Positions 1,877 through 52,299 of a stretch of DNA of 64,000 nt are shown here, in pieces. This stretch comes from Blasia pusilla (Eukaryota). Made by a program: the position numbers and the translations under genes. The stretch covers positions 3,286,001 to 3,350,000 of the forward strand of contig CM114271.1 in NCBI GenBank assembly GCA_050084515.1, in the 5' to 3' direction. The notes under the pieces are model-generated. The model was given only the letters and a program-made list of their open reading frames with translations. It searched no databases and was not told the origin of the DNA. The first letter of the stretch is position 1; each line of letters opens with the position of its first letter.

Positions 1877-2111
1877 CACTGGAACAAATCATGGTTTTAA
1901 TAACTTGCTCATATGACTCATTTTAGTCATATATAACCATAAATGACTGGCCATGATTGGTGACTCATGGAGTCACAAAAGCCTAGTCATGTACCATATT
2001 ATGACTAAAGTCATTTAGAGATGACTCATGGAGTCATTCGGTTATATGACTAACACGTCATCAAGCCATTGCACGTGTAAACCCGTAGTCATATAGTATG
2101 ATTGTGTCATG
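1877..2111 (-). mobile_element. CACTA (En/Spm) transposon terminus with subterminal repeats; displaced 3' end of the element at 38469-47910
   Basis: TIR CACTGGAACAAATCATGGTTTT resembles CACTAGAAGAAAATGGTGGTTTT at 38469. Dense ATGACT/AGTCAT motifs at 1913-2110 match those at 38520-38760 and 47390-47910. Confidence 0.8.
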
Positions 2112-3000
2112 GCGTCGTGATGCCTCTGATACTGACGATATTGTCGTCACTCCTATGGGAAATCCCATCGCCCACTCTCTCTTGTCGACCTTGGGCTCCA
2201 CCAACCTCTGAACCTGGTCATCCCAAACCAAGCCAAGACCAGGCTCCTTGTATGCATAGGAAGCGAGAAAACTCACAAACGTGGGAAAGGCTGCCCACGG
2301 CTTGCCTATCCACAATCAGCGGTGGTCAATCATCATGCCTCACTGCTTGTGAGCGACCACCTGGATCCAGAATGGAAGCCACTAACAAATGGGAGGGGCG
2401 CTCCACTCTCGCATACGCCCTCGGTAACATCGCATGGGGCACCAAGTTGGTCCACCATAGACGCGGGCGATGGGCTCTAGAACCTACACTCGCCGCATCC
2501 AAAAACACTACAGGGCCGATCCAAGCACGCACTTGATGAGCACTCATCTCCACCCATAACCTGGAGTCTCCTAAGATTGGCACATTCTCCAGAATGTAGG
2601 CTGGAGAACGAGATAGGTGCTCTTGCAACTCTCGTAAGACCCTCAACATCTCCCAAAACAACCTAGACCGAGTGTCAGCCAACCCGTTGCCTCGTCAAGC
2701 AATCGATTGGCCTTAACATGGCCAACCGGAAATGACCAAATCAATGGTGCCTAACCGGTCTAAGTCCTGCGCCCCTAGCAACGAAATATCCCTTGGTAGG
2801 GAACGCTGGTACCCCTGTACCGCGAATGCAGACAATAAGTCGGGAAAACGTGGGCGTAACTGTGCCACATGTTGTAGTGAGATGCGCCACGAAAAATCAT
2901 CACTCTCCACATACGGGTACTGTTGCACTTGCACTCTTGCCTGCAAAACAACAGCTAATCCGATGCTAATCCCTCCAAAGAGATCTAACACTCAAATACC
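2110..3000 (-). pseudogene. DNMT3-like C5 cytosine DNA methyltransferase domain of the retrotransposon polyprotein (stops plus one frameshift)
   Basis: Motif I GI*VLDLFGGISIG; motif IV DLVISGWPC*GQS; motif VI YILENV; motif VIII FLDAASVGSRAHRPRLWWTNL; motif IX EPKVDKREWAMGFPIGVT. Motif X (LLGQAMDL) lies at 48892 on the minus strand. Covers ORFs 2713-2991, 2326-2682 and 2061-2315. Confidence 0.9.
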
Positions 3001-3168
3001 CTCCTCCGAGATACACCACACAATAGGTGTGGTATCCAAGGGTGTCATCGTAGCACTCCCTGCTACCTCGGGTTCCTCAGACCCGTCACGCTCCGGTGCA
3101 AATGCCTCGCTCGACGCGGTCTGCACGTGCTTATCTGCCAATCGTCGAAGCTCCTCAGTCGAGCCCCA

Positions 3169-3770
3169 CTACGGCACCTCTCCTCCACGGAATGATGCGG
3201 CTACCATAACACTCCTCTCCATGGAAATGTTAGGAACTGGAGTATCCTCTACATGGACATGTCCCTCAATCAAATCACGAGGCCAAGTGATGGCACTTGT
3301 AAATGCTGCTAAGGTCGCCGTCTCTCCTGGCCGTTGCTCAATCACTGCACCTGTGAATCGAACGGGTAACGAGGTAAGGCGCCCATGACCTGAGTGCCAT
3401 CGTGGTCTATAGGACGCAGACTCCTCCCAATTATCCAGGGAAAACCCCATCGGATATAACACTACTCCACCAACCAAGACGTCATAGGACTTTGTATCAG
3501 TCACTATCGTCTTGGCTCGCACCACGGACTCATCTGTTGGATGTTCTGGGTGAATCTTCACCACGACCTCCTATCGGGTGATATACTGTGTGGTACTCGC
3601 TCCACCCAAGGATTTCTGTATCCGGAATGGAAAACGCTCCACATCGGCTCTTGTCAAGCCCAATCCTATAAATGACGCTTTCCCCAACATCAGGGATTGC
3701 GCTCCTGAATCCAACAAGATGCGTTGCGGACTAAAAGGTCTACCTTGAGAACTCACCAATTGGAAGACCG
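3169..3770 (-). pseudogene. Retroviral-type aspartic protease region of copy B
   Basis: RILLDSGAQ active-site motif (ORF 3571-3759) and downstream YDVLVG motif (ORF 3169-3564). Homologous to 29585-29980. Confidence 0.8.
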
Positions 3771-4048
3771 CTCCTCAATTATCCAGCAACACAACACCAG
3801 GAGAATCCATGGCATGCTCTTTCGCGGGTCTAGCGGGCATCTCCGCCATCCTAGCAGCCGCAGCCTACCATGAATCTGACATGGATGTTTTGAGCATCCG
3901 CTCCAAGGGCAAGTCCATCACCTCCTCTGCAATCACTTCTGAACGTGATGCAGGAACTCCGACTCCGCGCTTACATAGTAAAGCGGCCAGCCGAAAAGCC
4001 TCGGCGGGCATACCCCCCAACATCATAACATCGAAAGTAGAAAATAAA

Positions 4049-5053: not shown

Positions 5054-5068
5054 CTCACCCCTCTTTTA
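5054..5068 (-). promoter_or_regulatory. Polypurine tract
   Basis: Minus-strand TAAAAGAGGGGTGAG directly abutting the 3' LTR. Confidence 0.85.
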
Positions 5069-10395: not shown

Positions 10396-10407
10396 GCTCT
10401 GATACCA
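10396..10407 (-). promoter_or_regulatory. Primer-binding site (tRNA-iMet)
   Basis: TGGTATCAGAGC on the minus strand, 2 nt from the 5' LTR. Confidence 0.95.
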
Positions 10408-10409
10408 CT

Positions 10410-11408
10410 TGTCGCGCCCCTACTCTCCTTGAACGTCAATCTTTAGTGTTGCGGAAGCGTACGTTCAGTAGGTCACGAACTCATCGCCGATCTGCACCCA
10501 AACACGCACTCTCGTTAGTCGGGTCTGGGCCAACCAGCGTTCCAACCCACCGAGTCCTCAACTCGGCGTCTCATCAAGCTCAACCTTCCTTAGTTCCTAG
10601 TTTCCAAAACATGGCAAGTCCTTCAAGACTTGGAACAAACTTCCTGGTTAGTCCAAGGATCTGAAACGGCACTTGCGCGCCTAGCGATCCCAACTGCTCA
10701 ACGGTCCTCGGGTGAGTTCCGAAACCAAGACCCAAGTAAGTGAGTCGCGGGGTGGAATCCAAGAGGGACATCTAAAATCGCCTCAATGGACTTGGTGCAG
10801 GTTTTCCAACCCAACCCCCAAACTCGCGTTCCGTTCCATGCCCTTGAGCCGCCCCACGGCGCCCAAAGTGGGGTTTGGGTTCCAAGCACTCTCGGAGACC
10901 GTCCCCCTTACTAGTACTTCTGGGGTTCTCCAATAACCCCCCTTTGGAAAAAGAGGGTCGGGCCCTTCATTGTGGCCCTCAACCCGACTCCACTTACAGT
11001 CGTTTTCGGATTTTTCTCAGCCAGTGCTTATGAATTTGCAGCGATCTTTGTGCGTTTGGACCGGATCTCCATAAGCTTTCCAACGCACCCTTATTTGATC
11101 CAAACGCGTCTTGGCGCTAAAAGTTATGGCCATAAATACAGTCGGAAACTCTCAAACGCTAGTGGCGTTCCAAATCCGGATCTTTCCTTTGGCAACCCAC
11201 TTCCTAGACTCGACTTCTTTCAAGTCTCATTCCGCGTTTGGTCCAGGTTTCTCGGTCGCGACCATAACATCTGAAACGTGACTCCTCGCTCGCGTCTCGT
11301 CTCTTGTCTCCTCTTTGAGACTACTCCAACGCGCAAACCATCTTAGCGTGAGCCCGCTAATGTTCCGATGTTCCGCTTGGCACTTGTTTGGTCATGAGGG
11401 TCGCGACA
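10410..11408 (-). repeat. 5' LTR of the chromovirus element
   Basis: Direct repeat of 4049-5053, followed by TSD ATAAA. Confidence 0.95.
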
Positions 11409-11413
11409 ATAAA

Positions 11414-12966
11414 GGAGTGCGGTACACAATGGTGGCCGCCCCCAACAACGTGCTCGACACATGCCCCTCCAGAGCATCAACAATAGGAGTCGTCGTACTC
11501 GATTCTCCCATCACCCTCCGTGCCTGCACACCAAAAATATCACCAACTCTCTAGGAACTCTGATCAAGATCCATCGATGGGGTCCTCATTGCATCTGACA
11601 ACGTGAAAGACTGAGGAAGCCTAGTCTGTTTCTTGGCTTCCCCTCGCTATGGATCCAACTCTGCGGCTGCTCCTCGCATCACAAACTGCGCCTTCCTCCA
11701 TCTAGGCAACCCCGCACATCCAACCAGGATCCTCCAGATCTCTGGCTGCTCCATATGATGTCGATGCCATGGATCTGGCATCGGGTAACCTCAATGCCAT
11801 AACGGCAATCTGCTCCTTTAGCTACTATATCTGAGCAGCCTTCCCAGCCTCACGTCCGGCGTCTCCCTCGGTGCGTCTAGGTGGTGGTACTCTACCTCCT
11901 CCACGGGCAGCTCCACTACCGTGTCGGACAACTCCAGCTCCTCGTCCCCCAATGGGACCACCTGGTGCACGATCTCTAGCCCACCCGGACCGGCTACTCG
12001 CTCTGATGCCCTCTCTAGCCCTCGGTCCGGACGTAACTCAGGATGTAAACTGAAAGACGTGGCGCGTGTATGACCATATCTCTAACAATAGTCACACTGA
12101 TAACCTCCTAGTGCAACACCATCTCCTCCTCCATGCTGAGGAACGTGTCCATGACCCTGACGAGTGCAACCGTGCTAATGATGGGCTCCACCACATGACC
12201 AACAAGTAATAGTAGGCGGCTGCTGCTGAGCCGCATATGAAGACGGAGGTCTCTGTAGCAAGGCTCCCTGAGCTCGTGGTGCCACAGTCGACCTATCTTG
12301 GAGTCCATGTTGTTGCACAAGTAGTGTAGGCAATCGTGACTGCTCTCGCCCAGAACCCATGGTGGCTACGCTCTCCTCGGCCATGTTGCGCTCAATGTTC
12401 TCGGAGGTCCTAAAAACACCTCTCAACGTAGGGGAGGTGTTCATAAGAAGCACCCCCTCCCGCACCCATGTCCGCAAGGTCCGGTCTAGCATCGCGTACT
12501 ATGACTGGATAGCCTGAGCCTCTACCACCCCGTGAGTGACATTGATCAACCAGTGCAAGCGAGTGTAAGCCTCACGCAAACTCTCACCTGGGCGCCTGTG
12601 GAAGTCGTGATGCTCCACAACTTCTCCGTTCATATCCCATGGTAGCTCGTTGTCAACTCAACAAAGAACTCAACCACAGGGTTGAACCTAGGACGAACCC
12701 AACTAAACAGTGCAACTGCTCCCATGCCAATAACCCCTCCTAAAACGTCACTAGTGGAAGAGCAAGTAGCCTCTCCTGACTCCTCCTCATCTAGGAACGA
12801 CTCCGTCCATGACACATAATGTGGGTCATAGTAGAGCCTCAATGCCTCAATCTAAGTGTTGGAACATACCGTTCCATGTTGTAAACGGGTTGAACTCTCT
12901 AGAGTTCCTGGCCCACTAGGAATCACACCAACTCCTAAACTCTACTATGAAATCGTGCAACTCAAT
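11414..12966 (-). pseudogene. gag of DNMT-gypsy copy B (5'-truncated)
   Basis: Homologous to the gag regions at 23097-24710 and 31270-32941 (EFRSWCDS, RPRFNPVVEFF, LREAYTRLH). Two degenerate CCHC knuckles (CWSCGGAHH, CDYC*RYGH). Confidence 0.8.
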
Positions 12967-13216
12967 CAAGAGAAGGTGAACAAAAGTTGCCAAGATAGAA
13001 GCGTCAAAAGAGGCCAACCGATGTAAGAACCTTGAATTGGGAGGAAAAGTGCAAAGAAGGTAGGAAGGACATCATATAAAACATTGGGAGAGAATCCCAT
13101 AAGCCACTTGGGGATCCCCTAGACGAGGTAACAAATGAAGCCATTCCACGTCTTTCAAAACTGCCTCATCCAAGAACTTTGAGACATAATCGATGAAGCC
13201 AGTTGGGACCCCGAGA

Positions 13217-18770: not shown

Positions 18771-20930
18771 AAAAATTCATTTAAATATTAAGAAATATCA
18801 ACCTACTATTTTCAAGCATACCTTCCTTTCACTTCCCTTGGAGTATAACTAATAAAAAAAAGTAACCTCCTTCTCCTCCTATTATAATATAGATTTACCA
18901 TACTATTAATAGTGAAAGATTTTTTATGGAATATTTTGTGGGAATGAAAGTTGACATTCGCTAATAGAAATAATGCCTTCCAAACCCTAAACAAAGAAAA
19001 GGTTATTTTATGGGGTTTTATCAAGCCTAGCGCATCGCATCACCATATAAAGTAATACTAGTATGAGAAAATGGAATAACAAAAGAGCCCAAAATCCATT
19101 CTCGGATCATATAAATGGGAAAATATGTTGACAACGTGTAGTAAGCAAGTAGCGAGGTGCTATTGGGTGGACTTTCTTGAAAACTTATTTTGGAATTTTA
19201 AAAAAAAAATCAATTCGGAAGGTTTACAAAATCAATCAAGAGTTTCCTTCTACTTAATTACTTTTTCATACTTGATATTATATAGGTACTCACATTTATG
19301 TTTGAATATGCATCACTTACATTCATAATACTTTTATGCTAATGATATGTAACTTGGAAGCAACTTAGGGATCATGAAAAGTATGTAATTTAAAATTAAC
19401 CTTACACATGTAGGAGTTTGATTGGTTGAAATTGATAGTTGTGAAATTATTATGTACGTGATCTTTGACGTTATGAACTCTAAATTTTGTCGTAAGCTTA
19501 GTACGTTAACATAAGGTGAGAAAATGATCTCTTAGAAGTGGCTTGGATAAATTGTGGCAATCCCCATGATGAACACCAAGTAAGACTTATCAAAAATCAT
19601 CACTATCTCAAAGACCATGCCATGGTAGATAAAGCGTAGGGGGAGATAGTATCGAGGCCTTAGAGGGGTCTTGTACTTCCCTATTTTGAGAGGTCATATG
19701 TGACATACTCTTAGGACGTGACCTACGAGTGTAGGTCACCCTTCCCTTTATGGAGAGTGGCAACCTTGGAGAGTTTCACCTTCCCAACCATGTATGGCTC
19801 CATTTGGACCTATAGGGTTGTGGGTTAGTTGCTAGTTGGTCTCATGAGGGGACCACATGTGTAGATGTTAGGGAGTTAGTACTTTATGTACTACAGGTTG
19901 GTAGTGACTTGCTAGGAGGGAGGTGACATGTGTGTACAGGTCATCCAAGGTGCCACGGGGGTATACCTCGGATGAAGTTCATTTGGAGCTCATCTCCTTA
20001 GGATTACAGATCCGTGTTGGGATCCGTGATACGATGCAGCTTGCATGTATAGAGCCTGGATTTTCTCTTGAAGAGTGGTCTAGGAGCGATCAATAAGGAA
20101 GATCATATTAATTTTTGGGAGTCCGTGTGTACACTTTCTCTTATTGTTACACTAGTGTGTATCTGATCACGAATATGGTTGTTTGGATGAAGTACGGTTG
20201 ATTGCAGATTCATGAGAGCCTACAGTGCATATTCAACTTTATATCCAAAGGAGATGCACCCTGGTTCTTAATAGAAGAGAACGTAGGAATCAATTTCTGA
20301 TGTAGAGCACAATTGTGATGTTATGGGATTTGCAAGAATTGCAAGCTAGAATATCTTGACCATGTGGGAGTACGCGGGACAAAATAATTGTTGAAATCAA
20401 AGTCAGATGTTCACAATTGAGAAATTTGTGCAATGCGACATATTTGACAAGATTCGAAGAGGGGGAGGCTTCTCAATCCTGATGGAGTTGCTAAAGAGTG
20501 GAGAAATTGAGGATCAGATTGTAGGAACGGAGTTCCTTGGACAATTATAGTGAGAAAATCCGTGTCAATCGTCACTTGATTGAGTGTGGGCAAGTCAACA
20601 AGTGCGTAGGCACTTCGTTGGTGATTTTGAGTGAGGTGTGCTTGATTCTGGACCAAATCGGATGAATGTTGGGCAGGAGGAAAATCAAGCAAGAAGCAAA
20701 TGTAAGGAGGGCAAAATGGTATTTGATTATGCAAGATTTTATGAGATCTGCATTCGCCATTGGAACGCTCACAAAAAACTGAGGCTGACAGTGAAAATGA
20801 GATCAGAAAAACATTTGATTTGAGAAAGATTCAAAAAAGATTCTCTACTACCACATAGATTCCCTAAGATGAGCAGATTACCGGTGTGGAAAGGGCGGGA
20901 GAGAGCAGCGATGGAGTTGTTGTACAAGAC

Positions 20931-22332
20931 ATCAAAACTTAAGTTCTGATAGCCCTTCTGTGGAAAAGTGAGAAAAGCGAAGAGGATCTTCTTATTCTAT
21001 CGGAACTCAAGTTCCGATACTCCTTGTTGGTGAACGTGGTTCAAGCAAAGAAGAGGTTATGTGGTACAACATCCCCTCATGTTAGAGGTTGGAAAGGTTT
21101 GGGTATCGCTAGTATGGAGGAACTAGCGCCACTAGTTTGGAGCTAGGATTGCTATCCACAAAGATAGTGGAGTTGAGGGAGGCATGAGAACTTAAGTTAT
21201 GATTCATGAGAGCCCTCCCAAGAGGCAATTTGGAGCAAACCGGCAAAGTGGGAATTGGAATTGAAGTTATGATTCAACAGCAAGGGCCAAGTTATCTGAA
21301 GGGCGCAATATGGCACGGTGCGGCAAGGGTGACAAGGAGCTGGATAAGGAATTTGAAACTCAAGTTCCATTTTGAGCATAGTTCCGCCAAGGCGTGGTTC
21401 AACTGCATCGTGGTCATCTCGATGGCATAGCAGAGATTGGCATAGTGGGAGTGATAAGGAAGCAAGGAGGATTTGGAACTCAAGTTCCAATTATATCTCA
21501 GTTGGAGAACAGTGGAGCGTCTCAACTTTAGTTGCCTACTACGGCGTGGCATAGTGCGACGACCTAGGGAAGTGAAGTGAGGAGGCAATTGGAACTTCAA
21601 TTGTGTGTCTTCTATATAGGAAGGAGTAGAGGATAGGAAGGAGGCAATTGGAAATCTAATTCCCATTCCGCTCCTTAGTTGTGTTGGGTTCTCTTTATAG
21701 GGAGGTGGAGAGGATAGTGAAGGCAATCAAAACTCAAGTTCTGATGAATCCCTTTGGTGCGGACCCAAAAAGTGAGGTGGGCGATACTCTTAGTTTCAAC
21801 ACGGAATTTGGAGGAAGGAGATAGGAATCGGAACTCAAGTTCTCATTTTGCGGATTATCAACTGGGCCGCGGCTCTTCTTCAAGTGAGGCAAGAGGAAAG
21901 AGGAAGAATTGGATATGTAGTTTCTATTTTGCAACTTGTTCAAGTGGGCTCGGATCTTTCTATCAAGTACGGTGCGGTGATGCATGTGAAGCAGAGAGGG
22001 AGGAATGAGTAATTGGAACTTCACTTCCAATTTCGTCATTCTTCTGTGAATTTAAGAAGGAAGGAGTGAGCCAAGAGCATTCAGAACTGAAGTTCCAATT
22101 CAAAACTCTTTCAGGTGAAGGATTTTCACACGCCCAAGTTTCAGACGAGTTTCCAAAGTGGCGCGATAATCGGATCCCAAGTTCCAATTGGGATAAATCC
22201 TTCCCCCATCTCTATCTCAAGGTAGTCTCTTTTGGTGCAGGCAAGAATCGAAACCCAAGTTCCAATTCCCACCTTGGTCTCCTGCGAATCCAGCGTTCGT
22301 GGCGCGGCACGAATCGGAACTGAAGTTCCCAT
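20931..22332. repeat. Dispersed array of about 16 copies of a 20-bp palindrome, consensus ATYGGAACTCAAGTTCCRAT, with non-repeated spacers
   Basis: Copies at 20931, 20999 (ATCGGAACT-CA-AGTTCCGAT, perfect arms), 21184, 21254, 21352, 21472, 21588, 21647, 21726, 21827, 21908, 22012, 22080, 22169, 22247 and 22313. Confidence 0.85.
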
Positions 22333-24710
22333 TCACATGTGAGTTTGGCGTAACAGAGAAGTGAGCGGCAGGTGAGGCGGGTGAATCACGGGTATTCTCG
22401 GCATTTAGAGGCTTTGAGGCAAGAGAGGTATTGAAGGTGCGTGAGAGGCATTGCAGGCGCGAGGAAGCCAACTTGTTGGCGGGCGCGAGGACTTGGAAAG
22501 TTGGTGGTGATCCAGTTTAGCATAACTTCCAAGTCACTCATCCCAGTTCCATTCTTCCAGAGTGTGCTTAACTAGAGAGTAATGTTGCTTGTTGTGTTAC
22601 CAACACATCCACAGGGAAGTGATGACTAGTTGTTGCACACAGGGGAATTTAATCACTTACCTTGATACTTACGGAGATGTTTGAGGGAATTTTTTGGGTG
22701 ACACACATATTTTTAGTACGTTGGTGAGTGTAGGGCATTACCGCGACTATTGTAGAGAACTTGGTGGGATGGATGTATACCACACAAGTCGGGAGTGACT
22801 TAGTGTGCGGGCTATTTGGTGAGTATTGATCTCAAGTGAGATGAGTGGGGGCGTGTCCATAGTTTGGGCATCGTCTAGTGCAGAACTAGTGGCTCAGAGG
22901 TGAGTCATATTAGTTTGCAGGGTTCACCAGGGCGCATCCATAGAGTATTGGGGAGCATGGTAATGGAAGAAGTGGCAGAGGATCTACACGAAGTGGGGCT
23001 AGGTATCAAGGGTTTCCACACGAGGAACCACCTTAGCCGCCGGTTGTAGTTACTCCAAGGGTAACGTCAGCGGATTCTGAGTTACCCGAGAGGCCAATGA
23101 GTGTCGTGAGTGTCGCCACATCGTTGTTGTGGAACATGGATGATCGCGATACCTATGGGTCCACGAGGGGACCCCAACGGTTCTCAAGCATGGTGGGAAC
23201 CATCAAGTTAGATGATTTAATGGAGGGTTTTTGTAGTTGGTGTGATGCACAGAGGATGCGGAACCAACAGAGATTCGACCCCTTCATGGCGTGGAAGGGA
23301 ATTTTTCAGCATATGGAGGGCCCTCCCATTGATAATTACCACCAGTTCTGAATTCTCCATGAGATGCAGATCAAGGCGTGGAGACTATTTTGGTCTCCTA
23401 GATATGTGTCCCTCACAGGGCATGCGATATATGATGCGGCGACTGCAATACCACCCACTAATCGCATGGAGGAAACACTTAGAGGAGTTTTTGACCCGAG
23501 TCTTACGAGTGTGACCATCCGTGTGCCACCTGGGTTCAACCCATTGGTTGAGTTATTCCGAGAGTTGGGGAGGAACTATTAGGGGGTGAGGATCGACAAG
23601 CTGAAGTCGATTAGTTCATGAGTTTCAGCAGAGAGCGAGAGAGAGTCAAGAGGCCTATGCGGTTGATCACAACAACTAAGGGTGTGATGGAAGCACAAGC
23701 GGTTCAGTAATGGTATGCGATGCTAGACCGCGAGTTGCAGAAGAGAGTTCGGGATGAAACTCTTGTACATGTTGGTTCGTCTACTCTCAAGTATGTTTTT
23801 TTTTTTTGGCGGAGCGGATTGAGCAACATACTTGAGGAGAGAGTTTTGACGACATGCGTGTCATCTTCAAGGGAGAGGACATAAATAATGGTGTCTCCAT
23901 CAGTGCCACAACGCACTACTTGAGATACAGTTATGGTACTGGGGGCTACGGGAGGATACCAGGAGCCACGACCACGACCTATTCAACCATACGTTGGGCA
24001 GCAGGGCTCATGTATTTCTTATTGGACGTGTGGAGGATCACATCATTAGCGGGATTATAGATAGTAGAGTGGAGTGTAGGCATCACCATCAATTGTGTAT
24101 GAGGCGGCCCAGGGGAGGCCACCCTGACCTCCGTGTGATCATTGCTAGAAATATGGGCACACACACAAGATATGTTTCGAACTCCATCCCGAGCTACAAC
24201 TAGAGGGAGGTCGAGAACTTGGAGATGGCCGAGGATGAGGTGTATGAGGTCGAGGACGTGGTGGAGGCAGGATCCCACCACCTGCCACAACGAGTGCAGA
24301 ACTTGCATCGGAGGCATCTTTGGCGAGGATTGCTCAGTTGGAGCAATACCTTCAGGCTATGACAACCCAACATACTACTACATCATGTGCAGGGGGCGCG
24401 TCGACTTCCGGATGTGCTCAGGCCCAAGATATAGCGGGAGATCTAGGAGGTATCATATTTTTGTGCAACACCACACAGGTGGATGCATATGAAGTGGTTA
24501 CGAGAGGTGCAGTGAGAGCTTCTGAGCCAGGAGTATCCGATGTGGAGTTGGATCCCTAAAGGGAAGAAGTTGGTAGGTAGGCTAGACTTCTTTCCAATAT
24601 TTTACATTGTCAGAGGCTCTTCGGACCCCATCGATGGTCCCTCTACGACCTTTGAGGAATGTTGTTGTCACAAATGTCGATGCAGTTAGGGGATCAGGTG
24701 AGGCGAGTAC

Positions 24711-27700
24711 TATAGAAAATTGCTAAAGAAGCATAACTTGTGGGAAACGGCTCTCACACTTACATACCACCATCGAGAACAAAATTTTGCAATGAGAGAA
24801 TAAGTGGAGGCTTGTCCCCTTCTCAATTATATAGGGTATGTACAAACAATCCTAACCCTAATCTTAACCATAGTATCGAGTTAGACTAATTATGATTAAC
24901 TAACCTTAGTTAAGATAATCACGCTGAACAGATAACCGAGATTAAGCTTTCATACTTCGTGTGAGTATCAAATATAGTAGTTCAAGTGTCTCATGAGCTT
25001 GACTGTAACTTAATCTCCAATACTCCTCCTCAAGCTCATATCGATATCTCTAATGCCTAAATTATTTCTAAACATGTTAAACTTATCTCTAGACAATGCC
25101 TTTGTAAAAATGTCAACAATTTTTTGATCTGTACATACATACACAAGATCAATTTTTCTTGCAAGCGCTTTCTCTATGATAAAATGATAGTGCACCTCAA
25201 CATGCTTTGTACGAGCATGAAATACAGAGTTATTAGCAAGCTTGATGCTACTAATATTGTCTGCATATATTACACTAGATCTTAAGTTATTAACACCAAT
25301 CTCAACAAGTAATCGATGGAGCCACACCACCTCATATATTGGATTGGTTACTCCTTGGTACTCAGCCTCTAGTAAAGATAAAACAACCATAGGTTGCTTC
25401 TTTGAAGCCCAACTTATAGCTACGCTTCCCAAAGTAGATGAATAACCAGATATGGAGTGTCGATCAACATCTGTGAATCCCTATAATTGTAATCACGGAA
25501 AAGGTTCAAATTGAAGCCCGAATTGAACAAAGAATTTCACTTACCGCATAATCCTCTTCACAACATCAAGGTGAGGTTTTCGAGGTGCTTGCAAAAATTG
25601 GCTCACTATGCCAACTGCATAGCTCAAATCTGGTTGGTTATAGTCAGATAGATCAAAATTGCAACCATGCGTCTGTACATATTAGAATCTGCAAGCAACT
25701 CTCCTTCATCCACTCTTAGCTTCACACTATGGTCCAAAAGTGTAGAGATTGGCTTATAAGCCGTCATACCATATTTTGAAAGTATGTGAAGAGCATATTG
25801 TCGTTGTAGTAATCACATGCTCTCTCCAACCTTGGTAAAATCAATACAAGGAAGTACTTGAGTTCTCCCAAGTCCTTCATACCAATCTAGCTTTGTATGT
25901 GTTAATTATACCATCTTGATTGCGATTGATTTTATAAACCCATTTGTACCCAATAGCTTCCTTACTAGAAGGTATATCAACCAACTCCTAGGTTTGTTGA
26001 TATCTTAATGCAACAAGCTCTTCCTCCATAGCTTTAATCCATTCAACTTTATTTGCGGCTTCTTCAAAATAACTTGGCTCTTGTTCTTGAAGAGTAGTCA
26101 TCATGTATACATGATGTGTTCAAAGGAAACCTTCATTTATGAATCTATGAACAAGATGCGTGACCCTACTTGATCTACAAACTTGTTGTTCAAAGGTAGA
26201 TGCCTCTAACACATGACTCGAGCTCTAACTAGTGTCAACAGACTGAATACGTACTCTTCTTATCGATGGACTCACAGATTTAACCGACAAATCTAAGACC
26301 TCTCCTAATCCTATACTAGTACTCGGGAAATTTGTAGGCAATGTCTGCTGGCTTACTGTCATATTCTTCCCTTCATAGGTGGAATAGGCTCAGATGGAGC
26401 ATACCATAATTTTAGCTCATCAAAGATATCATCGCGACCAATAATAAGCTGCCTAGATAATGGAATGTAGCACTTCTACCCCTTAGTTCCATGAATGTAG
26501 CCAATGAATATACATCTTCCATATTTGGGGTCTAATTTATGATGTTTTTCAAAAAGAATATGAGCATAATAAAAATACCTTAGGCATATTATTCTCATTC
26601 ATCATAGCTCATATCGCCTCAACAATATGTCGATTCTTCCTCTCAGCCACTCCATTTTGTTGTGGAGTGTAGCGGCAAATCACTTAACGTTAGATGTCAT
26701 TTTGACGTAATTAATCATCAAACTCTATTGAAAGATACTCTCCTTCTACATCATGATGCAATTTCACAACGTGTTCTGTAGTCTGCTTCTCTACTAGAAC
26801 TCTGAATGTTTGGAACATTGAGAATACCTCTAACTTGGCATTCAGAAAGTATATCCATATATACCTAGAGAAGTCATTAATAAATGAAATAAAGTATTGG
26901 AAACCTTTAATGCTATGTTGTGATGTTGTCAACACATCATTGTGAATCAATTCTAATATCTTGGATGTTTTTCTACCTTGTTTTGCAAATGTAAATCTAA
27001 CTTGTTTTCCAAATCGGCAAGCATGACATACCTCTAACGTAATCGGACTCGCTAGTTCAGGAAGTCCTATGACTAGATTAGATGATAAAAGACTCTATAA
27101 TCTTTGAAGATTTATATGGTCTATTCTCTTATGCCACACATTTAGATGTATGACTTGTTGGCCGGTTTGACCATGCATTGTTGTTTGAATCTCTGGCATA
27201 GAAACATCTCATTTAAACATTCTGCCAAACCTAGTTCCTCTAGCTACCGTAGTTTGATCATCCATTGTTTCAATGAAACAACCATCTACGTTAAACTTCA
27301 CTTGATAACCGTGTTATACTATTTGTCTTACATAGACGAGGTTTCTTGCAATGGTAGGAACATATAGAACATTTCCAAGAGCACAAAGACTATCTGATGC
27401 TATTAGAGCTTTACCAATATGCGTGATATGATGTTGAGTGTTATCTCTTCTGAGCACAATTGTAGAATCTTTCACCGAATCCAAACTACTACATCATTTA
27501 GCTTTTGAGGTCATGTGATTTGATGCACCAGAGTCAATGTACCAATCTGTTGTCGAGTCTTTCTTGACCATTGCTCCCATATGATGAGTCAAGACCAAGA
27601 GATGCTTAGTTTGTGAATGTTGTTGTTCTTGGTATTGCCCTTGATGTTGTTGCTCCATATAGTTTTGTTGTTGTAAGGCTCATCTTCTCATATCTGTCTT

Positions 27701-29275
27701 CTTCTTAGAGCAAAACTTTGCATAGTGACCATTTATTCCATAGTAATTACAAGATTCAAGGATCTTCTGCTGGTGACCTCGACCCCAACGATTTCCGCCA
27801 TCACCACCTTGTGATTGTATCAGATACTGATTCGTAGTTGATTAAGTGACGTTATATTAAGTGCCTCTTTCTCTATATGTCTAATATCCACCATGACCAT
27901 GGAAGCTTCTACCACAACCCCTGCCTCTGTTTGGTCCATTACCTGCAAATAGCGCACTCTCTTGCAAACTAGACAAGCTACCGCTATGTAGTAGGCGCAT
28001 CTCTTAATTGATTAACAGTGTGACTAACTTTTGAAAGATTGGATGGTTCTTTCTCATAGAGATAAAGGTCTCAAAGGACTTGTAATCCTTTGGAAGACCT
28101 TGAAGAGTGAACAAAATTAGATCATCATCTTCAACTGTCACTCTAATGTTATTCAACTGATCAACAATATGTCTGATATTCAAAATATAATCATTGATAC
28201 TCTACGATCCTTTCCTCACTTCATTCAATTGCTCTTTCAATTGAAGCTTTCTTTGTAGATGCCTGGGACAGATTTTCCAATGCATCCCAAGCCTTCTTTC
28301 GGAATATCAACATCTTGAAGGTGACGTATCATTGGCGAACTAGTCGTTATTGAAATGTAGTGGATTACTTACCTTGCGCGTTTGTTCAAAGCGCAAACAT
28401 TCAAATCTATTGAATCCCCTTCTGGATTGGCCTCATCACCTGTGACAAGCTCCCATAGTTTTTGACCCATGAGAAATTATTTCATGCAAAACTTCAAGAC
28501 ATGTTAATTATGCTTAACTAGCTTCTCGCCTATGATTGTTGTTGAGGAATACTCCATGACGAACAATTTTACTCACTAAAACGTAATTTCAGACACTCCA
28601 CTACTCCAAATGAAGCATAGATCACTCCTAGACAGAAATCGACTTGAAATTTTCCAAAATTGATCAATTGTATGAAAGAACTAGTCGAGATTGGCTTGTA
28701 GAGAGCAAATTGCACAACTTTTACTCACTAAATCGCTACTAGAGCTCAAAATTATTGAGCAATTTTGAGAATACTCTACAAAACAATTAGAACAATTTTA
28801 CTCAGACCTAGACTAAATCGATGGAACAAAAATTTCTTTTTATCATCGTCAAAGCTCCACATGAAATTTGTGCCGAAAAAAAAATTTCTTTTATTTTGCT
28901 TCTCTCTTCTCTCCTCAAACACCAAGAATTTCAAGTAATGTTCTCCTATCGCTCTGATATCATGTAGAAAACTGCTAAAGAAGCACAATTGGTGGGAAAC
29001 GACTCTCACACTCACATACTACCATGGAAAACGAAATTTTGCAATGAGAGAAAGAGTGGAGGTTGGTCCCCTTCTTAATTATATAGGGTATGTACAAGCA
29101 ACCATAACCCTAATCTTAACCATAGTCTCGAGTTATACTAATTATGATTCACTAACCTTAGTTAAGATAATCGAGCTTAACCGACTAACCAAGATTAAGC
29201 TTCCCTAATTTGTGTGAGTACCAAATGTAGTAGTTGAGGTATCTCATGAGTTTGACTGTAACTCAATCTTCTATA
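24711..29275 (-). mobile_element. Decayed Ty1/copia LTR retrotransposon
   Basis: LTRs at 24711-25022 and 28963-29275 (about 312 bp, visibly diverged), TSD AGTAC, PBS TGATATCAGAGC at 28951-28962, PPT next to 25022. RNase H SWASKKQ...HARTKHVEVHYHF and integrase YFISFINDFSRY. Confidence 0.92.
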
Positions 29276-30409
29276 AGTACGTCTACCGGGCCTATGCAGC
29301 ATTCAACACGGCCTAATATTGATACATTACGAGAGATGGCGATGGTTTTGTCTAGCGTCCCATTATTTACAGCCAGAGATTTTTTGACATGTGGAGATCA
29401 ACCAACTGATGTTTTTCGATTGGCGGCGAGGCTCTGTAAGAGCGATGAGTTTGGTTTTTCTAGTGTTGAGAGTCGCATAGGAGATGTGGTAGAGGTACCA
29501 TTGGAGTAGGTGCTCGGGACGAGGGCCATAAAGAGTTGGCATGCATCAACGGCCAGAGTCGCAGAGTTGCCAACTAAATGAGCCATGGAGCGTGCAACCG
29601 TCTCACTAGGATTTGTCTTGGACAATCGAGATGGATTTTTCCAGTTGGTTGGTCCGTCCGGAGTCGTGTATCGACCGCAGAGAGTGCTACTTGATTTAGG
29701 AGCACAACCCCTTATGTTGGGGAAGGCGATATATGTAGCGATGGGATTGCGGAAGTGTGAGATCATTCCATATCCATTCCAGATTCAGAGTTCATTGGGA
29801 GGCACATCCCCGGCACAGTTCATGAATCGCGATGAGATTGTTGTGAGGATTCGGCCCGATCATCTTACGGATAGTGCGATGATGCGGATGCGAGCGGTTG
29901 TGACACCGATCGAGTCTTGTTATGTTTTGGTAGGGGATATCGTATTGTATCCTCTAGAGTTCACACTTGACTTTTGGTAGGAGACAACCTCCTATGGACC
30001 ACATTGGTAGTCAAACGAGGGACGAGCCAATTCGCTATCCGTGTAGTATGTACGGAGACTTGATGGTTCACTCCGAGGGTTGACCACATCAATTGTTTCT
30101 TATTGTGGCACATTATGTTGGCTTGGAGATTTATTGGAGGGGAACACCGATGTAGAGGATATTCCTATAGAGGATAGTCTAAATGAGTGGCATGCGATGA
30201 CGAGCGTGGCTACATCTGTTGGCGACACTTCTTTAGCTTTGTGGGGGACAAGCATCGAATTGAAGAGGAGAGCAAATGAGCTCGTGAGGTAGGCGTGGAG
30301 CCGAGCCTATGCTCTAGAGCGAGACGGGACTGAGTAACCATGTGCTCTAAGAGTGGAGACGTTGACACCCTTGGACACCACACCGATTATGTGGCGGTAT
30401 CCCGAGGAG

Positions 30410-30883
30410 GGTGTACATATACTATATCTCTTTCGAGGGATTAGTACAGCGATGGTTGCAGTGTTGCAGGTCGGAGTATGAGTACAAAAATACTCGTATG
30501 TTGAGAGAGATGAGACTACACGTAGAGTCTCATTACATCATGTGTCGAGACTAGTCCATCAGTATCCTCGGTTATTGCCAGTGTCTGCAGTCAGGGGATA
30601 TCAACATATATTGCCGATCGACATTTCGTTGTTGGGGGGGCTAGATCTGGATAGGGATTGGTCCGATACACTTGGTGGTGGCACGAAAGCCATGTCAAGG
30701 TCATTCTTTTGCGGGTCTAGGACTTGGTTTGAAGGACTCGAGGTCGGCCATATTGCAAGAGATGTTGCAAGTTCTTCGACACTTGAAGACTACCCAATAA
30801 TGTTCTCCAACCTACATTTTGGAGAACGTCCCATTGTTAGGTTTACACTCAAGCCCAAATGATGGTAAGTGTACATCAGGTGC
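30410..30883 (+). pseudogene. DNMT3-like C5 methyltransferase domain of copy D (motifs I to VI), truncated
   Basis: GVHILYLFRGISTA (I), SYVERD (II), IDISLL (III), IHLVVARKPCQGHSFAG (IV), DSRSAILQE (V), YILENVPLLG (VI). Colinear with 2110-3000. Confidence 0.88.
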
Positions 30884-33247
30884 CGTCGATAGAAGTTCGC
30901 CAATCCCATGAATGCACGAACTTGACTCACATCTGTAGGGCGTGGAATGCGTGAAATAACCTCTACCTTCGTCTGTTGCACACCAAGGCTCCCTGGGTAT
31001 ATCGTATGACCTAGGTACTCAATCTGGTCGTAGAAGAAATTGAACTTGCCTCGATGTAGCTTCAACCTATTTTACTGCAATCGTCAAATACCTCCTCTAG
31101 ATGTCGCTCATGCTCCTCAACCGTGGCGCTAAAGACTACGATGTCATCAATATAACACGTAGCAAAATCCTTGGCGAGATCCTATTCATGAACCTCTGAA
31201 ACTAAGCTAGGCATTTTTTAACCCAAATGGTAAGAACCACCACTGGTACAAGCAATCCTTCCCGTCAACATCACCAACTCTCTGGGAACTCTGATCAAAA
31301 CCCATCAATGGGATCCTCATCGCCTGAGACAGCGTAAAACACTGAGGAAGCCTGGTTTGTTTCTTGGCTTCCCCTCGTTGTGGATCCAACTTGACGGCTG
31401 TTCCACACGTAACAACTATGGCGGCCTCCATCAGGGAACCCCGCATATCCAACTTGGATCCTCCATATCTCTGGCTGCTCCATATGACATCGATGCCATT
31501 GATCCAGCATCAGATAACCTCAGTGTCATGGCGGCTATCTCCTCCTATAGCTGTTGTATCTGAGCAGCCATCCCAGCCCGGCATCTCCCTCGACGGGTCT
31601 AGGTGGCGGAACTCTACCTCCTCCACGGGCAACTCCACCAGCCCCTGGGGCAACTCTAGCTCCTCTTTCCCCAATGGGACCACTTGGTGCACGACCTCTA
31701 GGCCCACCCGAACCAGCTACTCGCTCTAGTGGAGCTTCGCCCCCGGCGCTACAGAAAAGGCTATGAGCCCTCTGTGGCCCTCGGTCCGGACGTAACTCAA
31801 GGTACGTGTAAGCTTAAATATCTTGCGCGTATGTGACTGTATCTCTGACAATAGTCACACTCATAACCTCCTGGTGCAACACCATCTCCTCCTCCATGCT
31901 GAGGCACGCATCCATGACCCTGACAAGTGTAATTGCGGTGGTGATGGGCTCCACTACATGCCCAACAAATAATACATGGCGGTTGCTGCTGCTGGTGTGC
32001 CGCATATAATGGTGCGGATCTCTATGGCATAGGCTCTCCATAACCTCTATGTGCTCATGAAGCCACAGTCCTCTCTCAAAATCCACATCGCTGCAATGGT
32101 GGTGCAGATACTCGTGGCTGCTCTCGCCCAAAACTCATGGTGGTTACGCTCTCCTCCGCATGTTGGGCTTAATGTTCTCGGCGGTCCTAAAAACATCTCT
32201 CAACGTGGATGAGGTGTTCATAAGAAGCATCCCCTCCTCCACCCATGTCCGCAGGGTTTGGTCCAGCATCGCATACCATGAATGGATAGCTTGGGCGTCT
32301 GTCACCCCCTGAGGGACGTTCATCAACCTGTGCAAGCGAGTGTAGGCCTCATGCAAACTCTCACCCGGGTGGCTCTGAAAGTCGTGGATGCTCCGCAACT
32401 TCTTCGTCCGTATCCCCTGGTAGCTCGTCCTCAAATCCGCAAAGAACTTAACCACGGGGTTGAACCTGGGACGGACCAGACTGGATAGTGCAAGTGCTCC
32501 AGTGCAAGTCATCCCTCATAACACATCATTCGCAAAAGAGGAAGTAGCCTCTCCTGACTCCTCCTCCTGATCTGGGAATGACTTTGTCCATGACACATAG
32601 TGTGGGTTATAGTAGAGTCACCATACCTCAATCTCATAGGCATATATGTGGGAGAACTCATGGTAATCATCCATGGGTTCCCCCTCTAGGTGCAAGAATA
32701 TACCATTTCATGCTTTAAACGGGTTGAACTCTCTAGAGTTCCTAGCCTGTTGTGAGTCACACCAGCTCCTAAACTCCGCAATGAAGTCATGTAGCTCTAA
32801 AATGCCTACAACATCCAAAAACCTACGCGGTACTCTACCTCGATTGTCCATCTCGTACTCCCAAGCTGTAGGACCACAAACTGTATGCGGTGATGCACTA
32901 ACACACTCCTCTACACTCTCCCCCTGGTCTGAAGATGACACAGAATGAGGTCGAGGTGGTCCCTCATGTGGAGACCCTCGAAATCGCGTGCCACTCCGCG
33001 TAAAAGCTCTAGAGCTACTCTCGGGTCCACCACCTTGCCTCTCAAAGTCCCAAAAATGATGTCATGATGACCCTCTTGCCCCTTTGACGCGATCACTCTC
33101 AACCTCGCGAGTAATCTCTCAATCACTCAAACTAACATGCGACACTCAATCTACACTCTCTCTCATTGAGAAATGTGTTATGTGTCAACAAGCGGCGTGG
33201 TGCAGCAAATCAACTACTGTCATATCATCTCATGAACAAACACACAA
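30884..33247 (-). mobile_element. DNMT-gypsy family copy E: leader plus gag fused directly to mid-RT (PR-DNMT deleted)
   Basis: gag from 32941 to about 31270 is homologous to copy B. It then reads DVDGKDCLYQWWFLPFGLKNA...CYIDDIVVF...MGLANFYRR, matching RT at 47911-49210. Confidence 0.85.
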
Positions 33248-47910: not shown

Positions 47911-48892
47911 TGAAACTCAGCCGGGCGTTCTTTAACCCAAATGGTAAGAACCGCCACTGGTACAAACAATCCTTCCCGTGAGGATCGATGCCCCAAAATG
48001 TCGTCTTCTGTCTGTCCTCCAATCTGCTAGGCAACTGATGGTATCCGGCTCGCAAATCCAATGAACAAAAGACCTTTGCGTGACCAATCGCATCAAAGAT
48101 CTCTCAAGGGTGGGCATGGCATACCTATCGGACTTTGTCTACCGATTGATAGGTCGGTAATCCCCACACATACGCCTATCCTTCCAATTGCCATGCACAT
48201 CCTTCTTGGCGGGCATGACACTGGCAGATGCACACTCCCCATGCGACATCTCCACTAGTCCTACTCCAACCAAGTCCTGACTCCTACTCTAAATCAAAGC
48301 CCTCTCCATATAATTATTCCTGTAGGAAGATCGGCGTATCACTCGACAACTCAATGTGGATCCCCGGTCCCTGCAGCGTACCCAAATCCTCCATGCTAAA
48401 TGCAAAGCAACTCCTAAAGCTCGTGAGGAATTGATGTATTTGGCGCCGCTCTCCTCCTGTCAACTTAGGGCCCGTATCTGACTCCCAAGTCTCCATCGTG
48501 ACTACAGTAGGACTCTTCGGCATGGATATCAGTGGTTGCTATGGTGCAACCCCATCTCGAACAACGACACTCGACCGCTCTCCTGCAACCAAGTGCAAAC
48601 TCTGATCTCCTCCACATGCAGGGCCCGGAACCACGCTCGATGTTGTGGCTATCATCTCTTGGCGTACCTGCAAAACATCCCTAGAAGTCCAAGGGTGTCT
48701 CTCCTGATCTCCCCAAGTGTGTTGATCTCCTCGGGTCTCGCCCCCAGCCACTGCCTCCACCATCTCGATAGGGGATTGGGGCTCACCAATGCAACCGCTA
48801 TGATCTGTTGCGATCTCATCTGACGCTGCTCAGCCACTCCTAAGCTGAAGATCCATGTCAAGCAGTTGAGGTCCATCGCTTGACCCAAGAGG
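47911..48892 (-). pseudogene. Fragment F of the DNMT-gypsy pol: DNMT motif X, linker and N-terminal half of RT (inverted)
   Basis: LLGQAMDLNCLTWI, then CFAFSMEDLG, RRMCGDYRPIN, SLDLRAGYHQL, LYQWRFLPFGLKNA, AEFQ. Confidence 0.88.
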
Positions 48893-51352
48893 GTCATGGA
48901 TAGGATCTTGGATGGTTTGGATTTTGCTAGGTGTTATATTGATGACATCGTAGTCTTTAGCACCACGATTGAGGAGCATGAGCGACATCTAGAGGAGGTG
49001 TTTCGACGATTGCAATTATATGGGCTGAAGCTTCATCCAGGCAAGTGCAAGTTCTTCTACGACCAGATTGAGTACTAAGGTCATACGATATACCCAAGGG
49101 GCCTTGGTGTTCAGTAGATGAAGGTAGATGCTATCTCACGCATTCCACGCTCTACAGATGTGAGCCGTGTTCACGTATTCATGGGATTGGCAAACTTCTA
49201 TCGACGGTACGTCAAAGGATTCAGTTTGATTACAAAGCGGCTGACCTTGTTGACCAAGGTGGATCACGAGTGGCACTAGGGGGATGAGCAGGAGCGAGCA
49301 TTTCAATTGCTCAAGGATAAGTTGTTGTCTGCGCCCATCTTGAGGAGACCGATCAGGGGGCGTCCTTTCTAGTTGCACACAGATTGGAGCATGTTGGGGC
49401 TTGGAGCGGTGCTCACGCAGTATGATGATGAGGGTGGAGAGTTCATGGTGGCTTACGCTAGCCGCTTGAACAAAGCTGCAGAGGCTTGTTGACCAAAGGT
49501 GGATCACGAGTGGCTAGGGGATAAGCGAGCATTTATGAAGATGAGTGCCAGCTACGGTGTGGAGCAGGGTCGTGCGATTCGGTGTTACTTATTCGGAAAC
49601 CCCTTTACCATCATCACTGAAGCTTGGGAGATGGGCTCTGTTGTTGCAGGAGTATGATTTTCAGGTGGTACATAGACCTGGGACGCTCAACCAAGATGCG
49701 GATGGGTCGAGTCGTAACCCATGCCCGAGTCAGCGAGATGCGACTGGAGCTCGATGGCATGGAGAGAGTGATGAGGAGTTGGTGCCAGGATGGCACGCGT
49801 CAGCTTATTTAGGCATGTTGGCTATGGAGAACCACAATGTGGAGACTTTGATGGTGAGGTCTAGTGGAGAGTCCTTGGATCCCGAGGCCAGTGAGGATAC
49901 GACAAGTGGCGAGATATTCATGATGATGGAGTAGTCATGGAGTACCTTCGTACTGGCAGCGTTGCGAGCATCGTGGATGCTAGAGAGCGGGATCGGATCC
50001 TACACCGGGCCAGACGGTTCCGTTGGGAGGGGACATATGTTTCGAGGGTTCGGGAGGATGGCAGAGTACGCGTAGTGCCGCATCCTTCGCAGAGAGCACA
50101 ACTAGTGCAGCATGCCCACGAGGAGTGGGTCACTTTGGGGTGAAGCGGACATACAACTTGCTCCAGATTCAGTATTGGTGGCGAGGCATGCAGACTAACG
50201 TTCAACAGTTTGTTGCCAAGTGCATGGTGTGTGATCGAGTCCGAGCATCGTTCAATGCTCCGACTCCACAATTGCATCCACTACCAATCATGGGCTTAGG
50301 GTATAGATGGAGTTTTGATTTTTCAGGACCTTTTCCTTTGACGGAGCGTCACACTCGTTATGTGTTGATGGTGGTCGAGCTCTTCTCGAAGTGGATCGAG
50401 TTGGTTGCATTGCCTGATAAAGCGAGTGAGGGAGTAGCTTATGCCTTCCTTGACAGAGTGTTGAGTCATTATCGCGCACCGGCTGATGTGTTGACAAACT
50501 AGGGTACCGAGTTTTGCGGTGAGTTCGAGGCCTTGTGTGATCAGGCGCTCATCAACCATCGTACGACTTCGCGAGATCATCTCGAGGCAGATGGATTAGC
50601 GGAGAGAGTTGTGCACGGTGAAGAGGGGTTTACGCAAGTATGGCTTGCAAAGAGGTCACCTAGGAGATTGGGACCTCCAGTTGCCATGGTTGGCGATGGG
50701 ATACACTTTCAGCAAGCAAGCATCCTTAACGTCTTTTTCACCATACTTGCTACTTTATGGTCGAGAGCCAAATTTACGTGCGGCCATTCGTCAAGATGCT
50801 GGTGAGGTGCTGGACCTTGATGACCCAAATGTATGGATTCGAGCATGTTCTTAGAGGGCTGAGTTGTTTCGGAGAGTGATGCCCATGGCATTCGAGAACT
50901 TGGCGATTGCGCAACATCGGGATACGTTGAGGTATGCGACTATTCGGGGTGGTGATTATCGACCAACTATCCGGAGGTTTCATGAAGGAGATTATGTCTA
51001 CTTGCAGCAAACGGCACCAACGACGTTGGATGTGATTGTAGGGTGCACTATCCTGAGAATGCGTGACGTTTTGCTATCTGGTGTTCTCTTGTTGGAGGGA
51101 CGCGATGGTATGGTATGGAAGGACCATGTGCGTAATTGTGCGCCATATCACCTTTCTTACATTGATGGTAGAGTAGATCCGAGCTTAGTAGTAGTTCCTG
51201 CAGGCTTGCGTTGTATGTTGTGTGGTTCTGCTTGTGGTGCGGCCACGATGCTAGTTTGTGATGGATGTTCGAGAGGTTGGCATATGGCATGTCTGATGCC
51301 ACCTCTCACTAAGGTTCCTCGGGGATGATGGATGTGTCCCAGATGTACATAG
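48889..51352 (+). pseudogene. Fragment G of the DNMT-gypsy pol: RT C-terminal half, RNase H, integrase, PHD finger
   Basis: RVMDRIL...CYIDDIVVF, LHTDWSMLGLGAVL, HAHE..GHFG..CMVC, RWSFDFSGPF, DGLAER, C-terminal C4HC3. Confidence 0.92.
51212..51349 (+). other. PHD finger at the integrase C-terminus
   Basis: CMLC-x11[29 protein letters not shown] gives the C4HC3 pattern, with one internal TGA. Confidence 0.9.
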
Positions 51353-51668
51353 AGGAGATACTAGGTAGGTTTCGATTCCTACTTTTTCTGTGACATGGAT
51401 GATAGGAAGGCGACTATCGATTGGGCCACATGAGCACCCGGCCTTTCTGCTCTTAGCGTCCTAGAGATGTATGTCGTGGGAGGTAGGGATAAATGGCTAC
51501 TGGAGTTAGAGGGATCTAACTACCAGCTAGGGGGGCGATTGGAGATATTTTGGTACTTCTCGCGTCTGTGTTTGGATGCCATGAGTTAGCATGGGATCGT
51601 GCGTGTTTTGTGTGTGTGTTCGGTGACTGCGATGTATGTTGTGTAACGATGTGTATGCGCATGACAAC

Positions 51669-52189
51669 TGTCACATCTTTTAGGATAGATCGGTAAGATC
51701 TAGTAGAGCGCCTCTGTGAGTAGTGGAGGACTGGCTCAGTAGGTTGAAGATGACGTGCTGAGGCCCCCATAAACCTGAGAGAGTAGGTTTCCCCTTCGTT
51801 TCGGCTCATTTGGAGCCATATTGAGGAACTTTCTATTTTAGGTAAGTACCATTTTGAGTATATGATCGACTTTATATTTTTGGTAAGTGGCCCTTGACCT
51901 CCTACATCAGGTCAAGAACCAAGGAGGTGACTTGGGAGAATAGGTTACCATGGAGAGAACTTGGGAGAGGGGAGGGGTATATATCCCAAGGAGAGAGAGA
52001 GCTTGAGAGCTCATTCTCTCTTTGTTGAACCTCTTGGCATGAGGCGGCGGAGCTATGGTCCCTTGCCTTGTGAGTGTAACCCAAGCCTCTCATTAGGAGA
52101 GTGAGTTTGGTTTGACATGAGAGAGAGAGAGTGCACACCTTTGAGAGCTACGATGTGAGATGGTGTAGAGAGAGATTGGATCTTACTTT
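51669..52189 (+). repeat. 3' LTR (truncated) of DNMT-gypsy B-F-G
   Basis: Starts TGTCAC and is homologous to the LTRs at 1031 and 62275. Followed at 52190-52298 by a second copy of about 51538-51665. Confidence 0.8.
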
Positions 52190-52299
52190 ATTGGAGATAT
52201 TTGGGTATTTCTCGCCTCTATGTTTGGATGCCATGAGTTAGCATGGGATCGTGCGTGTTTGTGTGTGTGTTTGGTGATAGCGATGTGTATGCGTACGAA

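Follow-up and report, generated by a model that had tools for sequence, protein, structure and literature searches.

A DNMT3-like domain maintained by selection ahead of a conserved UAG codon in a Gypsy-type retrotransposon family of Blasia pusilla

Why retrotransposons keep an enzyme that their hosts use for silencing has been a question since 2018, and the sole Gypsy case came without a tractable host. The locus described here raises this question in a liverwort. In the window (the whole stretch of 64,000 nucleotides of Blasia pusilla DNA that was analysed), two copies of one element, termed D and B, carry a protease, a linker and a cytosine methyltransferase domain (DNMT) in the same order. 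The first-pass annotation took the second, diverged copy (D) as a sign that the DNMT is a fixed feature of the family, maintained by purifying selection rather than carried along as neutral cargo. Copy D and its surroundings are composed as follows:

19618..20244, + strand: 5′ repeat A1 of copy D (82-85% like the 3′-end A2 repeat of four other D-subfamily copies)
22455..24704, + strand: copy D, 5′ region plus gag, with 13 stops and 2 breaks (83% like a D-subfamily copy on C5)
24713..29275, − strand: Copia LTR element inside copy D, with a 5-bp target duplication (LTRs 24713-25022 and 28965-29275, 87% alike)
29279..30364, + strand: copy D from the end of gag through the aspartic protease (∼29668-29970, recognised by its D(S)G and DVLVG motifs) to the conserved linker
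30365..30885, + strand: DNMT3-like domain of copy D, of which the N-terminal half (motifs I-VI) is left in a broken, truncated form
30884..31265, − strand: RT fragment of a B-type element (87% like the B-subfamily RT)
31266..33239, − strand: gag region from a B-like element; it forms a fusion with the preceding RT fragment

All motifs previously quoted for copy D are present on the + strand (TPLDTTP at ∼30365-30385, the Glu of YVE at 30503, PC at 30690-30695 and ENV at 30822-30830) and match those of copy B on the minus strand; TPLDTTP begins 45 nt to the left of the start that had been given (30410). The motif string spans two frames, with breaks near 30659 and 30846, seven in-frame stops lie between 29980 and 30800, and the SAM-binding motif I is altered. 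Copy D ends near 30885, after ENV, and the RxR motif and motif X are missing; in place of its 3′ half, the B-type RT fragment abuts it tail to tail. Its gag, which aligns with residues 5-504 of the Marchantia protein P0004, is separated from the protease-DNMT part by the Copia insertion. Pfam gave no match for copy D's own pieces, and no protease match for either copy D or the reference copy L083. D-subfamily sequence is also present in contigs from four DNA sequencing runs, and among the pieces listed none spans the junction at 30885, which is known from the assembly alone. Copy D is thus a dead, truncated copy of a Gypsy-type retrotransposon. Its 5′ region also harbors a 1.6-kb insert (20846-22455), which is partly common to two other copies, L056 and L213.

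Copy B is spread over both ends of the window:

2108..4048, − strand: protease, linker and DNMT of copy B to just before motif X, with 6 stops and 1 break
11408..12967, − strand: gag of copy B; a nested Gypsy element (4049-11408) lies between it and the protease
47911..48890, − strand: continuation of copy B (end of the DNMT, spacer and start of the RT; an inverted piece)
48533..48541, − strand: conserved TAG CAA CCA between DNMT and RT of copy B
48888..52288, + strand: remainder of copy B, with RT, RNase H, integrase, PHD (integrase and PHD from Pfam) and the 3′ repeats B1 (51538-51667), A2 (51669-52190) and B2 (52190-52286)

The piece at 2108 ends at base 3095 of the reference and the one at 47911-48890 resumes at base 3096; with such base-exact breakpoints, the pieces at 2108, 47911-48890 and 48888-52288 are one element. 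Two adjacent inversions (∼46 kb and 1 kb) may account for the split, the alternative being an assembly fault; copy D sits within the larger of the two. The element nested in copy B is a young, ordinary Gypsy (LTRs 98.8% alike), whose family is also found between DNMT and RT of copies L107 and L109. Elsewhere in the window, among retroelements, a 952-codon open frame (56708-59566, + strand) with WD40/CAF1B-HIR1 and Hira domains is a HIRA gene apparently without introns, and possibly a retrocopy.

The similarity of copies D and B (tblastn E value 2e-101) is unevenly distributed. Within the DNMT half, 57% of the amino acids and 64% of the nucleotides are identical over 145 codons (dN 0.33, dS 1.46), compared with amino acid identities of 51% in the protease, 36% in the linker and only 28-46% in gag. 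The DNMT is thus indeed conserved between the two copies despite strongly diverged gag and DNA sequences, as had been claimed.

Full-length copies of the family comprise ∼9.7 kb and encode, in this order, gag, protease, linker, DNMT, a spacer, RT, RNase H, integrase and a PHD domain; RVT_1, RT_RNaseH, Integrase_H2C2 and rve, followed by PHD, were identified by Pfam, as is typical of Gypsy elements in both kind and order. At their ends the copies carry split direct repeats, with A1 on the left and B1-A2-B2 on the right, in copies of the B, M and D subfamilies and in the metagenome element L198. The termini are TG..CA, and full-length copies are flanked by a 4-bp target duplication (exact in 3/5, with one mismatch in 2/5); L198 likewise shows such termini and duplication. 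Moreover, one insertion site of the family was found empty, in the Copia element of the window (28367-28370). The 3′ terminal 20 bases of L198, which is Sphagnum-like, and of the subfamilies of this genome are nearly identical.

Genome searches returned at least 151 matches with the DNMT half of copy D (8496 candidates) and at least 150 with that of copy B (9877 candidates), and an exact 17-base word of the B type occurred 1746 times, one of the D type 83 times. In a tree of 63 rows (a duplicate, L022, and two short fragments had been removed beforehand), three main subfamilies, B, M and D, were recovered, which are 29-37% apart in their DNMT DNA. Copy D stems from one of these; the family as a whole, a Gypsy-type retrotransposon that uses an integrase and has split direct repeats, comprises at least three such old subfamilies. 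Of 62 copies inspected, not one was unbroken, and a search of sequencing runs gave no RNA run among those listed as containing the sequence. Searching IMG/VR yielded a single weak match (42%). The CpG observed/expected ratio (0.78-0.88 for the family, 0.87 for a DNMT-less Gypsy and 0.51-0.53 for Copia) is uninformative with respect to self-methylation.

At the family level, the domain has the hallmarks of a C5 cytosine methyltransferase: motifs I, PC, ENV, RxR and X are all present, in unrearranged order and free of introns, and it matches PF00145 above the cut-off. Its best match by sequence among solved structures is DNMT3A (E 2e-11), and a structure model (pLDDT 80.8) finds DNMT3A/3B as best fold matches (E 5e-15, TM 0.62). 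Of 90 copies, 80 retain the catalytic Cys, and the Glu of ENV is present in 89 of 92. Together with both arginines of RxR they are the majority residue in every subfamily, as the idea of a maintained domain had implied; the arginines are weakest in D (11/19 and 11/18), where losses mostly came about through changes at CpG codons. PCQ and ENV are invariant across 14 aligned proteins, including those of Marchantia, Calypogeia and Sphagnum.

Selection was analysed on a codon alignment of individual copies, in which stops and breaks were masked, with dN/dS estimated separately for the tips, for the internal branches of each subfamily and for the three stems that connect the subfamilies; the singletons M2 and D2, two B2 copies and copies covering less than 45% of a given domain were left out of the codon models. 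On the stems, dN/dS of the DNMT was 0.094 (58 copies, 331 codons; about 0.07-0.125; 2ΔlnL against a ratio of 1, 345), and 0.105 for the half present in copy D. These values are far from 1 and comparable to those of protease (0.089) and RT (0.058), which bears out the purifying selection across subfamilies that had been proposed. RNase H (0.024), integrase (0.025) and the integrase end with PHD (0.043) were lower still, whereas tips ranged between 0.70 and 1.25 across domains (0.89-1.03 for the DNMT). Since stem dS is uneven, spanning 1.2 (RT) to 6.4 (gag), the ratios of the individual domains are rough; using the smallest dS of any domain, that of the DNMT is at most 0.18. The linker had been intended as a neutral control and turned out not to be neutral (0.123); as gag (0.079) is constrained, too, a low ratio is by itself no proof of catalysis. 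The linker (residues 111-236 of L083; 29980-30364 in the window) is conserved as far as Marchantia and Sphagnum and may be an unrecognised domain. Stem dN was 0.04-0.07 for RT, RNase H and integrase, 0.22 for the DNMT, 0.26 for the protease, 0.51 for gag and 0.56 for the linker.

Two copies alone are insufficient to call the DNMT "fixed"; samples picked by RT only (38 with a B-type query, taking every fourth match, and 20 with a D-type query) do, however, support the term. At least 80% of the DNMT was found upstream of the RT in 44/58, and 204-263 of its 331 codons in 6 more, so that 50 of 58 keep most of the domain. In two of the remaining 8, a Gypsy element is inserted between DNMT and RT, in four, part of the DNMT survives next to an insertion, a break or a rearrangement, one is cut off immediately ahead of the stop described below, and one, a D copy, has two deletions, one of which removed most of the DNMT. 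No DNMT-less lineage was present among the 58, in searches that reach near relatives rather than distant lineages. Selection has thus very probably acted on the DNMT while the lineages were active. Fixed place, low dN/dS and retained catalytic residues show, as far as sequence can, that the DNMT3-like domain functioned as part of the element during that time, and its enzymatic activity in active elements appears quite probable.

Between DNMT and RT, all subfamilies contain TAG CAA CCA, 82-96 codons past the DNMT and ∼76-79 codons ahead of the RT anchor; copy B carries the sole family copy of this signal in the window (48533..48541), copy D having lost that part. Among copies with usable anchors (73 of 100; 27 were without), TAGCAACCA was present in 67/73, and in 18/20 of a further set (85/93 together); genome-wide, TAG occupies 1746 of 1890 sites with B-type context. 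Identity between subfamilies is 0.92-1.00 at the nine bases of the signal and 0.75-0.97 at positions −10 to −5, but mostly 0.0-0.4 around them. Of the 73 copies, 42 have the stop in the frame of the DNMT and 49 in that of the RT; the others carry private indels. Along gag, protease and DNMT, in contrast, no stop is common to more than 5 of 22 copies, which indicates that this stretch forms one ORF (ORF1).

The same arrangement is found in metagenome loci (54 of 80 usable; 26 were without anchors). The unbroken locus L181 consists of an ORF1 of 1369 codons, TAG CAG TTA and an ORF2 of 1047 codons, the first Met of which lies within the RT. The signal of L180 is identical to it; L182 shows TAG CAA TCA, together with a frame change between gag and protease. 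The hexamers following the stop (CAA CCA, CAG TTA and CAA TCA) thus vary, yet all remain within CAR-YYA, as does that of L129; only 4 of the 54 loci, however, fit this consensus fully. In 42 of the 54, a group clustering with Sphagnum, TAG or TAA is followed by CAA CCC, which departs from CAR-YYA at the last base. Proteins of Marchantia and Calypogeia stop 81-83 residues after the DNMT, which matches the position of the stop. Calculated RNA structure within 90 nt past the signal gave z scores between −0.6 and −2.4 (five loci), which does not weigh clearly for or against readthrough. CAR YYA after UAG is a known plant/TMV readthrough signal, with about 10% efficiency in vivo (PMC2754532). Because of this context, the UAG is likely to have been read through by a minority of ribosomes, although conservation extends to positions −10 to −5 as well, and retention of Gln-Pro as protein sequence could be an alternative reason for it.

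Taken together, the best explanation (probability roughly 0.6) is that the DNMT was selected, made at the Gag level by virtue of UAG readthrough and used to methylate cDNA. Gag, protease and DNMT occupy one frame ending in UAG, and RT, RNase H, integrase and PHD continue in the same frame. The UAG would halt most ribosomes, and the minority passing it would yield the full polyprotein. Retroelements require ∼20 Gag for each Pol (PMC2194720), and the amount of a domain is therefore set by whether it lies before or after the stop; being part of ORF1, the methyltransferase would be made at the Gag level and packaged in excess over RT and integrase. Released by the protease, it would methylate cytosines, most likely in CG, of the new double-stranded cDNA inside the particle. 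By analogy with SymbioDIRS-Dnmt3, which carries a cytosine methyltransferase methylating CG in yeast but is a DIRS element, new copies would integrate already marked; on this analogy, the odds for cDNA as the substrate are about even. The mark might serve to pass as self, to shield the cDNA or to temper new copies, as considered in PMC5890265.

Somewhat unlikely is a true stop, with the DNMT selected as part of ORF1 and ORF2 expressed by reinitiation at a nearby AUG, by splicing or from a shorter RNA. An in-frame ATG does occur within 25 codons of the stop in 15/16 B and 15/16 M copies (∼15 codons on), and close behind it in 40 of the 42 CAA CCC loci of the Sphagnum-like group; moreover, a plausible stop context failed the readthrough assay in Tca2 (PMC2194720), so such signals may mislead. 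However, only 2/10 D copies have this ATG, it is absent from L129 and L181, and its position is variable, while the frame is kept across the stop and three different hexamers all fit CAR-YYA. Even with a true stop, the DNMT would still be produced at the Gag level. It is unlikely that an active enzyme worked in trans, with chromosomal copies or host DNA as its targets, and so restrained the element's own spread or served the host, as raised by the authors of PMC5890265. High output of ORF1 would permit action outside particles, but selection is seen on the branches of multiplying lineages and not in single genomic copies (tips near 1), none of the 62 being unbroken. A non-catalytic DNMT, which binds cDNA or RNA, acts as particle scaffold or is merely needed as a folded domain in the polyprotein, is rather improbable. 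It would agree with the similar dN/dS of linker and gag and with the charophyte domain lacking activity in yeast, but variation among bryophytes and far relatives (45-68% identity) is lowest at the catalytic Cys and Glu and in the SAM loop, and dN of the DNMT is well below that of linker and gag. Neutral cargo of a successful element, whose only support is that single copies, D among them, have decayed, can be dismissed given a dN/dS of 0.18 at most, the catalytic residues kept and a spacer that, unlike the DNMT, is unalignable between subfamilies.

Among the matches listed, named proteins of Marchantia polymorpha, Calypogeia fissa and Sphagnum share 45-68% identity over most of the DNMT, and those of M. 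paleacea and Riccia sorocarpa match partially. No vascular plant or Klebsormidium name was found among 43 matches in one search and the 120 of 162 matches listed in another, and no K. nitens protein in 10 protein clusters. The three subfamilies group with the bryophyte-named proteins in a tree made by a quick method, as was the RT tree below (SH-aLRT 100). The proteins in which DNMT and RT are fused without a stop (P0024, P0026, P0036 and P0042) are all environmental and more distant. Five unnamed proteins (P0029, P0032, P0033, P0037 and P0039) carry a related DNMT flanked by RNase H and integrase, with PHD coming after; related DNMTs are thus found in two different places among related elements. 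Both kinds branch outside the stop-bearing group (RT tree, SH-aLRT 99).

The closest published system is KnitGypsy-Dnmt3 of Klebsormidium nitens, a Gypsy-type element with a DNMT3 (de Mendoza et al. 2018, PMC5890265). It shares with the Blasia element an intron-free, unrearranged DNMT3-like domain, the Gypsy domains, DIRS-like split repeats and purifying selection on the DNMT; the Ka/Ks reported there is <0.2, so that the inference of selection drawn for copy D was already known for such elements. By its published description, however, the DNMT of KnitGypsy-Dnmt3 shares an ORF with RT and RNase H, a trait that the Blasia element, with its conserved UAG in between, does not have, and it is therefore not placed there. 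Also, 33 methylase genes in all are described for that alga, compared with thousands of copies and named land-plant hosts here. The charophyte Gypsy DNMT caused no methylation in yeast, which the authors judged inconclusive (PMC5890265); in the portions available, later papers cite only "streptophytes" with the 2018 reference. EpiLTRs (bioRxiv 10.64898/2026.05.21.726589) are also retrotransposons with a cytosine methyltransferase, which is described as sister to DNMT4 and accompanied by DAM and a chromodomain. Host DNMT3 of non-flowering plants (PMC6453930) has the DNMT3-type catalytic domain with a C-terminal DUF3444, for which Pfam gave no match in the ORF1 piece of the element.

As in TMV-type readthrough, an in-frame UAG is followed by CAR-YYA and a long continuing frame (PMC2754532). 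Stop suppression is described for SIRE1 (pol/env), MuLV (gag/pol) and, as a candidate, rice RIRE2 (PMC2754532, PMC2194720, PMC2829016); in the Blasia family, the putative readthrough site lies after gag-protease-DNMT and before RT, and CAA CCC is found in one of the related groups. Those plant Gypsy elements whose first ORF is GAG-PROT (Neumann et al. 2019, PMC6317226) resemble the element in having gag and protease first and the remainder second; the available text of that paper mentions neither a methyltransferase, nor PHD, nor Marchantia. With Ty3/Gypsy (Metaviridae) it shares a DDE integrase, TG..CA ends and a target duplication of 4-6 bp, but has split direct repeats instead of two plain flanking LTRs. 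Membership in DIRS/Ngaro/PAT was rejected, the element having an rve integrase in place of a tyrosine recombinase and L181 only two long ORFs, as was Troyka, described with CG..CG ends and 3-bp duplications from animals only (PMC12440569), in contrast to TG..CA and 4 bp here. In the literature searched, no account of a stop between DNMT and RT in such elements and no paper on the bryophyte copies was found; Repbase, subscription papers and the supplementary figures of PMC5890265 may hold either.

Apparently new are the land-plant range (liverwort, moss) and the stop placing the methyltransferase with Gag. The land-plant relatives contradict the printed absence of methylase-encoding transposons from "land plants, such as tracheophytes" (PMC6338049), and annotators should be cautious, as databases list ORFs of these elements as hypothetical proteins or host methyltransferases. 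The stop changes the published model of a DNMT-RT fusion: if readthrough were as in TMV, DNMT would be made ∼10-fold in excess of RT. Tentatively, at somewhat less than even odds, we propose that in this liverwort and peat-moss lineage readthrough puts a de novo methyltransferase on the Gag side and every particle, loaded with it, pre-methylates its cDNA before integration; thousands of copies in this genome would have originated in this manner, which would amount to transposon-made 5mC in a land plant. With relatives in Marchantia polymorpha, the question of why retrotransposons keep such an enzyme is brought into a genetic model.
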